From: Lachnospiraceae bacterium
GTDB taxonomy: Bacteria > Bacillota > Clostridia > Lachnospirales > Lachnospiraceae
NCBI GenBank assembly: GCA_024687205.1
Contig: JAILES010000081.1
Location: 5,657-69,656, forward strand
Direction of reading: 5' to 3'
DNA length: 64,000 nt
Shown here: piece after piece, positions 2,783 through 31,890 of the stretch
Numbering within the stretch: the stretch's first letter is position 1
Layout: each line of letters opens with the position of its first letter
The notes under the pieces: generated by a model
The model's database searches: none
The model's input: only the letters and a program-made list of their open reading frames with translations
What the model was told of the DNA's origin: nothing
Position numbers and translations under genes: made by a program

Positions 2783-3817
2783 TTAGATTATCCCCTCCGG
2801 TATCCGGTCGGTCACCCTCTTTAATTTGGCATCGATCATCAGCTTCTCGGCTTCGGCGGCATTTATGCCCCTGCTTTCCATATAAAAGAGCATATCCGGC
2901 GACAGTTTGCCCGAAGTATGGGCATGACGGCCGCTGATCTTCTCTTCCTCGCCGAGGATCATGGGTATCGCACGGTTCACCATATCCTTGCCCAGTGTCA
3001 GGACGTTCTCCTCCTCGTCTCCCTCGGCATCAACGGCTCCGTTACGGAAATCCAGGGTATCGCGCATGATCTTCCTGGCATTATCCTTAAGCACGCCCTC
3101 AAAGCGCATCACACCCTTGCTCTTCCTGCCCCGGAAGGTATCCACATAGTTGAAATCCAGCAGACTGTCCTTTTCGCCCACATAAGCCACATCGGCTCTG
3201 AATTCGCTCTCGTATCCCCACTGGTCCGCATAAGCACCGGCATAGACCGTGCCGGCCCCCAGCTGTACCGAGGTATAATCCATCTTCGCCCTGTCCATGA
3301 GCCTGCAGCCCATATCGTCCAGGTAAGTATAGTCCTTGGCAAGCTTCTGTATCCTTATCAGATGGAATTTTGCATCTTCTTCAAGATACACTTTCACACT
3401 GACTGCTGCCTGACCCTTTCCTTCCCCGGTGAAAATCTGCACAAAAGAAGCTTCCACGCCCTTTTCCACGTGGATATAGATGGCTTTCCTGAAGTCCGCA
3501 CCGTCTTCAAGCTTATACTCCTGCTTTACCGGCTCCTTCGAGGACTCGTTTATCTCAAGCACTTCCACGGCCCCCAGATATTCGTCCATCTCCGCGCCCA
3601 GTCCCGTAGGAAAAGCCTGCTCCCTGTACATGGGTATCTTACAGGCGATAACTTTCTCTTCGGGGGACTCTTCGGAAAACCACGGGGACGGACCTTGTGG
3701 TCCTGAAGGACCACAAGGTCCGTCCCCATGGTTTCCCTTCACTTCCGCAATGCTTTCATTCATTTTTAATTTATTCCAGGTCAGCACCGGCAGGTGGTTT
3801 AAATGCATCTCACTCAT
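2783..3817 (-). CDS. sufD: SufD family Fe-S cluster assembly protein, with an in-frame palindromic insertion
   Basis: SufBD beta-helix C-terminal motifs (PMILGEEE..GRHAHTSGKL..LFYMESRGI). Third gene of a sufC-sufB-sufD run with overlapping stop/start codons. Confidence 0.85.
   Translation of the reverse strand: MSEMHLNHLPVLTWNKLKMNESIAEVKGNHGDGPCGPSGPQGPSPWFSEESPEEKVIACKIPMYREQAFPTGLGAEMDEYLGAVEVLEINESSKEPVKQEYKLEDGADFRKAIYIHVEKGVEASFVQIFTGEGKGQAAVSVKVYLEEDAKFHLIRIQKLAKDYTYLDDMGCRLMDRAKMDYTSVQLGAGTVYAGAYADQWGYESEFRADVAYVGEKDSLLDFNYVDTFRGRKSKGVMRFEGVLKDNARKIMRDTLDFRNGAVDAEGDEEENVLTLGKDMVNRAIPMILGEEEKISGRHAHTSGKLSPDMLFYMESRGINAAEAEKLMIDAKLKRVTDRIPEGII
3677..3734. repeat. 58-bp palindromic (REP-like) element inside sufD
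   Basis: AAACCACGGGGACGGACCTTGTGGTCC-TGAA-GGACCACAAGGTCCGTCCCCATGGTTT: 27-bp arms with 1 mismatch. Confidence 0.9.
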
Positions 3818-5217
3818 CAGCCCGTCTCCATTTCCAGCTTGATCAGATTGTTCATCTCGGCCGCGTATTCCAGCGGCAGTTCCTTGCTCACGGGACTTGC
3901 AAATCCGCTGACTATCATTGCTTTCGCCGCAGCTTCGCTCATGCCCCTGCTCATCATATAAAATACCGCATCATCACTGATACGTCCTATCTTTGCCTCA
4001 TGTCCCACATCCGCTGTATCGGTCCTGATATCCATGGCAGGCACGGTATCCGATCTCGACTCGGAATCGATCATCAGCGAACCGCAGTTAACTGAAGCCT
4101 TTGAATACAGCGCCGTTGGTCTTATCTCCACGGAGCTCCTGTAGGTATTGATACCGCCGCCCTTGGTTATGGACTTGGTATCTATGAAACTCGAAGTATG
4201 CTTTCCTATATGTATCACCTTCGCGCCGGTATCCAGGTTCTGGGTCGCGCCCGCAAAGGTCACACCGGTAAATTCGCTGTGGGAGTGGTCTCCCTTTAAT
4301 ATCGAAGTCGGATACAGATAGGAAACATGGGAACCGAAGGAACCCGATATCCACTCTATGGTTCCGCCCTCTTCACAGATCGCGCGCTTCGTGTTTAAGT
4401 TGTACATATTCTTGGACCAGTTCTCGATGGTGGAGTAGCGCAGATGCGCATTCTTCCCCACAAAGAGCTCCACGCAGCCTGCGTGCAGATTGGCGATATT
4501 GTACTTGGGCGCCGAGCAGCCTTCGATGAAATGCACATCAGCTCCCTCATCGACGATTATCAGCGTATGCTCAAACTGTCCCGCTCCCGGTGCATTGAGT
4601 CTGAAATAAGACTGCAGCGGTATCTCCACCTTAGCTCCCGGAGGCGCATAAACAAAGGATCCGCCGCTCCACACTGCGCCATGCAGCGCGGCAAATTTAT
4701 GATCGTTCACAGGCACCAGCTTCATGAAATGGTCTTTCACCATCTGCTCGTACTTGCCTGTGATCGCACTCTCCATATCTGTGTAGACCACGCCCTGGTC
4801 TTCCACTTCTTTTTTCACATTGTGATAGACTATCTCGGAATCGTACTGCGCACCTACGCCGGCCAGGGCTTCACGCTCGGCCTGGGGTATGCCCAGCTTC
4901 TCAAAAGCATTCTTGATGTCCGCAGGCACTTCGTCCCAGCTGCCCACCATCTTGGTCTTGGGCTTCACATAGGTCACGATATTATTAAGATCCAGTCCGT
5001 CAATCGGAGGACCCCAGTCCGGGATCTCCATTTCCTTATATACTTTCAGGGCATTCAGACGGAATTCCAGCATCCACTCGGGATCGTGCTTCTCCTTCGA
5101 TATCTCCCTTATGATATCCTCGGTCAGGCCCGCATCTACCTTGTAGAAATCCTCGTCCCTCTCTTCATCCCTGAAGTCATATATCGAAGGCTCTTTTACC
5201 TCTTTGATATCACTCAT
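3817..5217 (-). CDS. sufB: Fe-S cluster assembly scaffold SufB
   Basis: 466 aa. GVGAQYDSE, FAALHGAVWSGGSF, QSYFRLN, QFEHTLII, FIEGCSAP, LHAGCVE, HEAKIGRI motifs. Confidence 0.95.
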   Translation of the reverse strand: MSDIKEVKEPSIYDFRDEERDEDFYKVDAGLTEDIIREISKEKHDPEWMLEFRLNALKVYKEMEIPDWGPPIDGLDLNNIVTYVKPKTKMVGSWDEVPADIKNAFEKLGIPQAEREALAGVGAQYDSEIVYHNVKKEVEDQGVVYTDMESAITGKYEQMVKDHFMKLVPVNDHKFAALHGAVWSGGSFVYAPPGAKVEIPLQSYFRLNAPGAGQFEHTLIIVDEGADVHFIEGCSAPKYNIANLHAGCVELFVGKNAHLRYSTIENWSKNMYNLNTKRAICEEGGTIEWISGSFGSHVSYLYPTSILKGDHSHSEFTGVTFAGATQNLDTGAKVIHIGKHTSSFIDTKSITKGGGINTYRSSVEIRPTALYSKASVNCGSLMIDSESRSDTVPAMDIRTDTADVGHEAKIGRISDDAVFYMMSRGMSEAAAKAMIVSGFASPVSKELPLEYAAEMNNLIKLEMETG

Positions 5218-5953
5218 TCTTTAAACCCTCAAAACCTCCGGCGTTAATGGTCTCCACAAGTTCGGCACCGCCTTCCTTGACTACCTTTCCGTCCACGATC
5301 ACGTGGGTAGCGTCTACGTTAAGGCCTTCCAGTATCCTGGTGGAATGCGTGATGATCAGCAGTGTTCCGCCGTTCTTTCTGAATATATCAACGCCCTTGG
5401 ATACGATACGCACCGCATCCACATCCAGGCCCGAATCCGTTTCGTCAAGTATCGCAAACTTAGGCTCCAGCATTAAGAGCTGGAAGATCTCTGCCTTCTT
5501 CTTCTCGCCTCCTGAAAAACCGACATTCAAATCTCTCTGCACATAAGCCTCATCCATATCCAGCAGGCTGCAGGTCTCTTCAAGTTTCTTCTTAAACTGG
5601 AAGATCTTTATGGCCTTGCCTGTGCGCTCTCTTAAGGCACTTCTTATGAAGTTGTCCATCGTAAGTCCCGGCACCTCAAGCGGATTCTGGAAACTCATGA
5701 ACAGCCCCGCTTTTGCCCTTTCATCCACAGACATTTCCGTAAGATCCTTACCGTCAAAGATCATGCTTCCCGAATTCACTTTATATACGGGGTTTCCCAT
5801 GATCACGTTGCCAAGCGTTGATTTGCCGGCACCGTTGGGTCCCATCAGCACATGTGTCTCTCCTGCTGCTATACGAAGGTCTACTCCCTTAAGTATCTCT
5901 TCGCCCTCGATGCCTGCATGCAGGTCTTTTATATCAAGTATGTATTCAGACAT
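5210..5953 (-). CDS. sufC: Fe-S cluster assembly ATPase SufC
   Basis: GPNGAGKST Walker A, FSGGEKKK signature, LDETDSGLDVDA. Confidence 0.95.
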   Translation of the reverse strand: MSEYILDIKDLHAGIEGEEILKGVDLRIAAGETHVLMGPNGAGKSTLGNVIMGNPVYKVNSGSMIFDGKDLTEMSVDERAKAGLFMSFQNPLEVPGLTMDNFIRSALRERTGKAIKIFQFKKKLEETCSLLDMDEAYVQRDLNVGFSGGEKKKAEIFQLLMLEPKFAILDETDSGLDVDAVRIVSKGVDIFRKNGGTLLIITHSTRILEGLNVDATHVIVDGKVVKEGGAELVETINAGGFEGLKNE

Positions 5954-29382: not shown

Positions 29383-29432
29383 ATCAGGGGGACGGTTCTC
29401 CGGTTGACCTGTTTTGTCAAACCGGGGATTTC
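29383..29432. repeat. REP-like palindromic element
   Basis: ATCAGGGGGACGGTTCTCCGGTTGAC-CTGTTTT-GTCAAACCGGGGA. Confidence 0.75.
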
Positions 29433-31008: not shown

Positions 31009-31113
31009 ATCAGGGGGACGGTTCCGCGGTTGATTTTGGTCAAAATTTGCCCTCAGATCTGCTGAAGCCCTTGAAAATATTAGCCGATCAGAGAACCGTC
31101 CCCCCGGTTGATT
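31009..31113. repeat. Pair of inverted REP-like units (REPIN-like)
   Basis: ATCAGGGGGACGGTTCCGCGGTTGAT ... ATCAGAGAACCGTCCCCCCGGTTGAT. Confidence 0.8.
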
Positions 31114-31839: not shown

Positions 31840-31847
31840 TTCTACAA

Positions 31848-31890
31848 TGGGGACGGTTCGGACAGATCACAGAACCGTCCCCACGGTTGA
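31848..31890. repeat. REP-like hairpin between convergent genes
   Basis: TGGGGACGGTTC-N12-GAACCGTCCCCA-CGGTTGA. Confidence 0.8.

Follow-up and report, generated by a model that had tools for sequence, protein, structure and literature searches.

A REP-type doublet read in frame within sufD of a Lachnospiraceae bacterium, and the REP/RAYT-like family to which it appears to belong

The window analyzed here, a stretch of 64,000 nucleotides of genomic DNA from a Lachnospiraceae bacterium, carries three suf genes on its minus strand in the order sufC, sufB, and sufD (Table 1). The product of the 344-codon ORF was identified as a SufD-type protein (PF01458, SufB/SufD core domain, E 3.9e-45). The source genome assembly (G000), which consists of 137 contigs and 3.28 Mb and is 94.7% complete with 4.2% contamination, contains one SufD gene, one SufB gene, and one NifU/IscU-type gene. 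A 64-nt palindrome lies in frame within sufD, and short intergenic repeats are found further along the window.

Table 1. Coordinates of the genes, repeats, and comparison loci. Positions are those of the window unless a genome, contig, or locus handle is given.
Feature	Location	Strand	Remarks
sufD (SufB/SufD family, 344 aa)	2783..3817	-	host gene, intact, under purifying selection
sufB (466 aa)	3817..5217	-	stop codon overlaps sufD start (ATGA)
sufC (ABC ATPase, 247 aa)	5210..5953	-	
REP1 doublet (REPIN), 64-nt palindrome	3674..3737	-	translated as SufD residues G28-S48
Arm 1, one REP1 unit	3674..3704		GGAAAACCACGGGGACGGACCTTGTGGTCCT
Arm 2, inverted REP1 unit	3707..3737		2 mismatches to arm 1
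REP2 (GGGGACGGTTC) unit, intergenic	29383..29407		cited in the first-pass annotation; family different from that of the sufD element
Two inverted REP2 units, intergenic	31009..31113 (31009-31033 and 31087-31113)		
REP2 doublet, intergenic	31844..31890		
Full 64-nt REP1 doublets in G000 (n=5)	C3 (sufD), C4:23244, C81:18375, C81:25787, C103:28934		layout 31+2+31
REP1 units preceded by a reiteration, G000	C4:23229, C6:7000, C61:24160, C77:14490, C81:25850, C99, C103:28920-29030, C136:15463		
RAYT1, Y1-HUH transposase gene (250 aa)	G000:C136:12429-13178		found by Y1 transposase search
REP1 units flanking RAYT1	12161, 12204 (upstream); 13184, 13215 (downstream)	+ (upstream); - (downstream)	2+2, inverted
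Second RAYT-like gene (257 aa)	G000:C88:69984-70757 (L018)		46% identical to RAYT1; adjoins REP2 units
REP3-flanked RAYT loci	L029-L032, L088 (G047, G059, G046, G023, G053)		five other species of the genus
SufD without the element	P0004 on L001 and L002; G017; P0005 on L004; P0006 contig		aa identity 87% (P0004, BLASTP) and 90% (G017)
Acyltransferase-3 gene (PF01757, E 6.7e-36)	L025/L077, G023:C90:4269-5348		REP1 doublet in frame in a loop

In an inverted-repeat search, the arms of the palindrome were 31 nt each, 94% complementary, and separated by a 2-nt spacer, and no other copy of the 31-nt arm was found in the 64-kb window (0 of 100 shuffles). The first-pass annotation had given the arms as 27 nt and the loop as 4 nt (3677-3734); the palindrome is real, and that extent comprises only the inner part of the 31-nt arms. 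The odd peptide segment that it was said to add to the N-terminal region of SufD is indeed encoded there and is contained in the 21 Gly/Pro-rich, stop-free residues listed in Table 1, of which residues 28-47 read GNHGDGPCGPSGPQGPSPWF. The predicted tryptic peptide of the REPIN-bearing SufD is GNHGDGPCGPSGPQGPSPWFSEESPEEK. When folded as mRNA, the element formed a 30-bp stem, and the 111-nt stretch around it reached -67.6 kcal/mol (z -9.5 against shuffles); the 64-mer folded as single-stranded DNA reached -32 kcal/mol (z -10). A search of Rfam 15 returned no family at gathering score, only sub-threshold matches to generic hairpins (miRNA precursor), and nothing matched when the RAYT locus described below was searched. 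The in-frame palindrome in sufD is a confirmed observation.

At the place of the palindrome, the closest SufD orthologues have 12 unrelated codons (DGKEAGNWPETA). Orthologues without the element read DGKE[AG]G[NA]WPE[TV]A, or have another short linker, between AEVK and ESPEE, and the sufD flanks on both sides of the element are collinear with them. At the DNA level, ~66 nt in G000 stand against 36 nt in the orthologues, a net gain of 30 nt or 10 aa. Since unrelated codons occupy this place in the orthologues, the element replaced a variable linker, the length of which differs by tens of residues among Lachnospiraceae SufD homologues. The first-pass annotation had expected an alignment gap of ~19-20 aa; the difference does fall exactly at the palindrome, but the orthologues have other codons rather than a gap of that size. 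It had also considered that orthologues might carry the same segment without a palindrome, which their unrelated linker contradicts. No target-site duplication was seen at the sufD junctions; instead, 36 resident nt are missing, and we know of no RAYT or IS200-type mechanism that explains such a loss by replacement. The resident linker was also considered as a decayed REPIN, and this was rejected, as 914-964 of 2000 shuffles scored at least as well in local alignment.

The host gene was examined for signs of continued function. Outside the insert, dN/dS of sufD was 0.066 between G000 and another strain of the same species (L076, see below) and 0.10 between G000 and G053, which belongs to a different species, and similar values were obtained for REPIN-free pairs (0.04-0.12). 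These ratios (0.07-0.10 for the carriers) indicate that sufD with the REPIN is still under purifying selection. An AlphaFold2 model of SufD had a mean pLDDT of 85.6 and a pTM of 0.86; residues with a pLDDT below 50 were confined to the insert (30-45 and 48-50), and the beta-helix core and C-terminal helices were unaffected. No SufD match was found in ~20 of the 45 species representatives of the genus, including genomes that are 96-99% complete. SUF is therefore not indispensable in the genus, and the constraint argument leans on dN/dS. It may be that sufD is dispensable in this group, which would weaken the argument from tolerance, although dN/dS points to constraint. The short SufD type that lacks a C-terminal Cys-rich tail occurred in only three of the 45 species representatives (G000, G017, and G053).

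The repeat family of the sufD element, termed REP1, has the unit consensus AAACCAYGGGGACGGACCTYGTGGTT. Units were counted over the whole G000 assembly as matches within 5 mismatches of a 26-nt search consensus (AAACCACGGGGACGGACCTTGTGGTT), which gave 34 units at ~20 places and none in the reversed-genome control. True REP1 copies other than that in sufD sit on contigs other than the one that contains the window. Folded as single-stranded DNA, a single unit gave a hairpin of 12 bp, the loop of which is ACGGA (-9.1 kcal/mol, z -4.2); units and doublet alike folded far better than shuffles, and many single units are followed by a T run. Approximately 18 of the 20 places were without a plausible spanning gene, as judged by ORF and codon-usage checks and Pfam searches of candidates and not by formal annotation. 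In the search for the palindrome in other coding sequences that had been proposed in the first-pass annotation, the sufD copy alone lay deep in a real coding sequence of G000, and one other copy overlapped the 3' end of a gene. The inner stems of the doublets read TTGT, TGGT, TCCC, TGCC, or TAGT, and the variants were always matched in both arms; this comparison covered the doublets of G000, G023, G053, and others, with many more doublets in G023, G053, and others. Such matching of inner-stem variants in both arms has been described in Pseudomonas as the signature of REPINs (PMC3116915).

RAYT1, a candidate partner enzyme, matched PF01797 with an E-value of 1.8e-10 and 41.4 bits (Pfam cut-off, 23). 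Its best and only NCBIfam match was REP_Tyr_transpos (NF047646), at 61.4 bits below the cut-off of 80. HIH and YxxxNP motifs were present in the sequence, and a PDB sequence search with RAYT1 gave no match. The gene is flanked by inverted REP1 units (Table 1), and a transposase gene flanked in this manner, the REPtron, defines REP/RAYT systems (PMC3116915, PMC3733652). A perfect 17-bp direct repeat, GATACTATGTCAAGAGG, encloses the cassette of the gene and its units (G000:C136:12144-13266; L019 1180-2302); the exact 17-mer occurs at only those two places in the genome and resembles a target duplication, although RAYTs are considered immobile. An empty site was sought in relatives, and the corresponding position in G017 contains other DNA. 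REP1 units numbered 86 in G023 and 61 in G053, and no RAYT1 orthologue adjoining REP1 units was found in these two genomes. Their RAYT genes, one of which is cut by a contig end, are flanked by another family, REP3, so that the pairing of REP1 with RAYT1 is drawn from G000.

Two sister families were distinguished from REP1. In the first-pass annotation, the core ACC[AG]YGGGGACGG was reported to match repeats at 29383, 31009, and 31848 of the window, which were taken to be of the same family as the sufD element. The match was reproduced in part, in that the pattern with at most one mismatch finds 31096, 31844, and 31875. The family assignment did not hold: all that the copies at 29383 and 31009 have in common with the sufD element is GGGGACGG, and they contain GGGGACGGTTC rather than GGGGACGGACC and therefore represent a sister family, REP2; the repeat at 31848 likewise has only GGGGACGG in common. 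G000 contains 81 REP2 cores, the intergenic repeats of the window included, and the second RAYT-like gene adjoins units of this family. The third family, REP3 (TGAGGACACGGGGACGGTCC..., unit TGAGGACACGGGGACGGTCCTTCTGTCCTCA), flanks RAYT genes in G046, G047, G059, G023, and G053. In a fold comparison, GGGGACGG was located at the top of the hairpin in REP1, REP2, and REP3 and may be the recognition motif. Three related families with a common apex were thus found, each adjoining a RAYT-type transposase gene.

From these features, the sufD palindrome and its family appear to constitute a REP/REPIN-RAYT system of Lachnospiraceae. The first-pass proposal that a REP-like palindrome of a normally intergenic kind is now part of a protein is borne out by a genome-wide family that is almost wholly intergenic, by the RAYT-type transposase of that family, and by orthologues that differ at this place. 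As in the systems known from E. coli (TnpA-REP) and Pseudomonas (PMC3116915, PMC5581495), there are tens of short hairpin units, almost all intergenic; inverted doublets form a long hairpin with compensatory arm changes; inverted units flank the single-copy gene of a Y1-HUH transposase; and several families coexist in one genome, each with its own RAYT. The present system differs in its host, a member of the Clostridia, in the intragenic position of the copy, in an apical GGGGACGG shared by the units rather than a 5' GTAG, and in RAYT1 itself, which has a C-terminal HTH-like tail and scores under the NCBIfam equivalog cut-off. Group 1 RAYTs have been noted as "also found in the Clostridia" (PMC5581495), where Clostridia are mentioned only in passing, and a literature search for REPINs in Lachnospiraceae found no paper. 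A complete system of this type is thereby documented in rumen or gut Lachnospiraceae, where such elements have barely been described.

Di Nocera et al. 2013 (PMC3733652) compiled a catalogue of intragenic REPs, mostly dimers that encode 20-30 residues, read them as tolerated decorations, and stressed DNA replication and repair genes; Firmicutes are not mentioned in that survey (0 mentions). The GTAG/CGTC-tagged REPs of that catalogue resemble the sufD element as in-frame dimers of 20-30 residues in known genes. In the REP1 unit, CGTC occurs within CCGTCCCC, next to the inner stem when the doublet is folded but in the loop when a single unit is folded. The differences are that the host gene here is sufD, that resident codons were replaced, and that one junction is common to two non-sister species. 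In-frame REP insertion is itself already known and is seen here in the Clostridia; the replacement of resident codons, the compensated within-species variants, and the same junction in two non-sister species go beyond the known pattern.

The analogy to Rickettsia palindromic elements that had been drawn in the first-pass annotation was supported, in that these, the classic in-frame example, are likewise palindromic repeats in frame in functional genes, translated as an extra surface segment. RPE-1 is ~100-150 bp and restricted to Rickettsia, and no transposase is known to be associated with RPEs. The sufD element is 64 nt, has a RAYT, and shares no sequence similarity with them, so that the analogy is one of behavior only; Rickettsia palindromic elements are also cited in the survey of intragenic REPs (PMC3733652, refs 13 and 14). 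Bacterial MITEs (e.g. Correia and Nezha) are comparable as small non-autonomous repeats that are now and then found inside reading frames. They possess terminal inverted repeats from DDE-type insertion sequences and make target-site duplications, whereas no duplication was present at sufD and the partner enzyme here is of the Y1-HUH type.

Further carriers of the element were identified with a left-junction pattern, which recovered L074, L075, and L076; an exact-protein look-up and the initial junction patterns had given no matches. L076 (metagenome contig JAEEGL011785658.1) is 97.3% identical to G000 over 2155 nt and thus represents a second strain of that species, with the element at an identical place in sufD. 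At the sufD locus, L074 (JAIKYA010000116.1, MAG: Lachnospiraceae bacterium isolate RUI469) and G053 (MAG RUI469) are identical; G053 is a different species of the genus, with sufBD ~85% identical to G000 and the REPIN at the same junction. L076 and G053/L074 share the left junction GTGAAG|G with G000, and sufD is intact in both. Three length differences separate the alleles, and all of them keep the frame: 12 nt from a partial reiteration on the left in G053, 12 nt from a reiteration on the right in L076, and 3 nt at the right junction in G053.

These carriers bear on the explanation that the palindrome is a fold-back chimera of the assembly or a native, non-mobile palindromic coding segment, which is almost certainly wrong. 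The fragmentation of the 137-contig assembly, its 4.2% contamination, and the mosaic nature of one element-bearing metagenome contig (L075) would suit an artefact. The arms are not identical, however, and the flanks are collinear with orthologues on both sides; the 64-nt architecture recurs at four other places in the genome, and five orthologues are without the element. The assembly artefact, which the first-pass annotation had named as a possible refutation, is further contradicted by the two other independent assemblies (L076 and G053/L074) that have the element at this junction.

We consider it very probable that the sufD element is a tolerated REPIN passenger in a disordered linker of SufD. 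In this reading, the palindrome is a REPIN made up of two REP units in inverted orientation that belong to a REP/RAYT system of Lachnospiraceae. Judged from its analogues, E. coli TnpA-REP and the IS200/IS605 enzymes, RAYT1 presumably recognizes a single-stranded hairpin with a GGGGACGG apex and copies doublets. The LPVLTWNKL and IACKxPMY motifs of SufD are joined by a linker of variable length, 36 nt of which one doublet has replaced, an event visible in the comparison with orthologues; the insert is in frame and encodes a Gly/Pro-rich, stop-free peptide. Because the linker is disordered and tolerant of length changes, as the model and alignments suggest, the protein would still work and the allele would persist as a largely neutral passenger. 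This REPIN allele is now present in at least two strains of the species and in a second species. Within the species, the variants keep the pairing but not the peptide; nucleic-acid pairing is what is maintained in the insert. The predicted 30-bp mRNA hairpin lies 81 nt inside the cistron, where it probably impedes ribosomes or provides RNase III with a site. With close relatives that have or lack the element, the locus provides a clean natural case of a mobile hairpin that has become protein sequence.

The alternative that the hairpin has been exapted for regulation, so that the mRNA stem adjusts how much SufD is made in relation to SufB and SufC or defines a site of mRNA processing or stability, is quite improbable. 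It gains from the very stable stem (free energy of the 111-nt stretch given above), from the same placement in two species, and from an element that differs between G000 and G053 by 2-3 of 64 nt though the synonymous divergence of the gene is ~1. It gains as well from a compensatory double change between strains that keeps the pairing: the inner stem GGTCC/GGACC of G000 is GGTAC/GTACC in L076, and the peptide changes from PSG to TSV. The pairing and low divergence are, however, equally expected of a REPIN copied or gene-converted as a hairpin, sister lineages (G017, L001, and L004) are without the element, and other copies of the family are scattered and unlinked to suf. The matched arms fit a hairpin copied or converted as one unit and fit selection on structure equally well.

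The origin of the junction shared by two species was examined with a maximum-likelihood tree of sufB and sufD from which the insert columns had been removed. In this tree, G000 and L076 were sister to L001 and G017 (support 100/100), and G053 and L004 fell outside that clade. A single clade of REPIN carriers was rejected by the AU test (p 1e-51 without outgroup; 6e-9 with the P0006 contig as outgroup). Absence of the element is ancestral, since the non-carriers share a homologous linker, the first codons of which (DG) are also present in the outgroup. Vertical inheritance from one ancestor was rejected on the tree and AU test together with this homologous linker, found in non-carriers and partly in the outgroup.

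Two explanations were weighed for the shared junction. The first, to which we give nearly an even chance, is a single insertion, after which short-patch homologous recombination transferred the REPIN allele between the lineages of G000 and G053. The left junction (GTGAAG|G) is identical and the same 36 resident nt are gone in both, orientation, loop (TTCA), and inner stem are alike, and the G000 allele is derivable from the G053 type by one 12-nt deletion and 2 substitutions; the sufBD tree, by rejecting a carrier clade, also excludes vertical descent alone. Identity of the flanks between G000 and G053 is nevertheless not raised (0.87-0.88 left, 0.78 right), sliding identity revealed no recombination tract between them beyond the element, the right flank tracks each lineage's own relatives, and the 14 nt on the left share synonymous states that can be ancestral.

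The second, which we consider only slightly less probable, is two independent insertions at the same site, because the enzyme or process is site-biased and only this linker tolerates an insert. Two changes are required by the tree, the flanks are lineage-specific, and nearly identical master REPIN copies are present in both genomes. A precedent is also found in a loop of an acyltransferase, which holds a REP1 doublet in frame in G023 and, in G048 (L078, C294), two direct GGACCGTCCCCYGGTCCAAAATG units (DRPPVQNEPENRPLVQN) of another family with GGGGACGG; a decayed version was found in G050 (L079, C155) and a short loop in G043. As this loop is occupied by different REP families, one protein loop can be colonized repeatedly. 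Against two insertions, both events must have deleted the same 36 nt and ended at the same left base, and a target motif was not identified. The same junction in two non-sister species makes targeting versus recombination testable.

A further coding copy was located in a TetR-family gene (G000:C103:7822-8481; L026/L083), the last ~13 codons and stop of which are replaced by a single REP1 unit and a partial reiteration; the new 26-aa tail is EPQGPSPWFSPWFSCQGQAFKIQFKL, and orthologues end ...IPQSDFESLYLGR. The coding REP1 copies, namely those of sufD (three assemblies), the acyltransferase, and the TetR tail, are all in one Gly/Pro-rich frame (...GDGPCG...PQGPSPWF), which is only suggestive given the few independent events. 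It is conceivable, although we regard it as unlikely, that REP1 acts as an in-frame loop cassette, with stop-free Gly/Pro-rich doublets placed or exchanged between species at the same codon junction in replacement of linker codons. If true, this would imply a target-directed replacement activity of the RAYT or hairpin-driven conversion between species.

L075 (JAEEGH010200627.1) was discarded as evidence for a carrier on account of its mosaic composition from several species. It begins with ~70% sufB of a distant relative and continues with stretches 100% identical to L076, to G017, and then to G000 up to the REPIN, after which unrelated DNA follows. Chimeric assembly of the contig, with switches at conserved words and at the repeat, is the probable cause. 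Such repeats can be intragenic and can cause mosaic contigs, which is a warning for annotation and metagenome assembly.

Partial reiterations (11-15 nt) of the unit's own 5' part (GAAAACCAYGGGG) precede many REP1 units in G000 (Table 1). A similar 'stutter' accounts for the sufD alleles that differ in length by 12 nt in frame.
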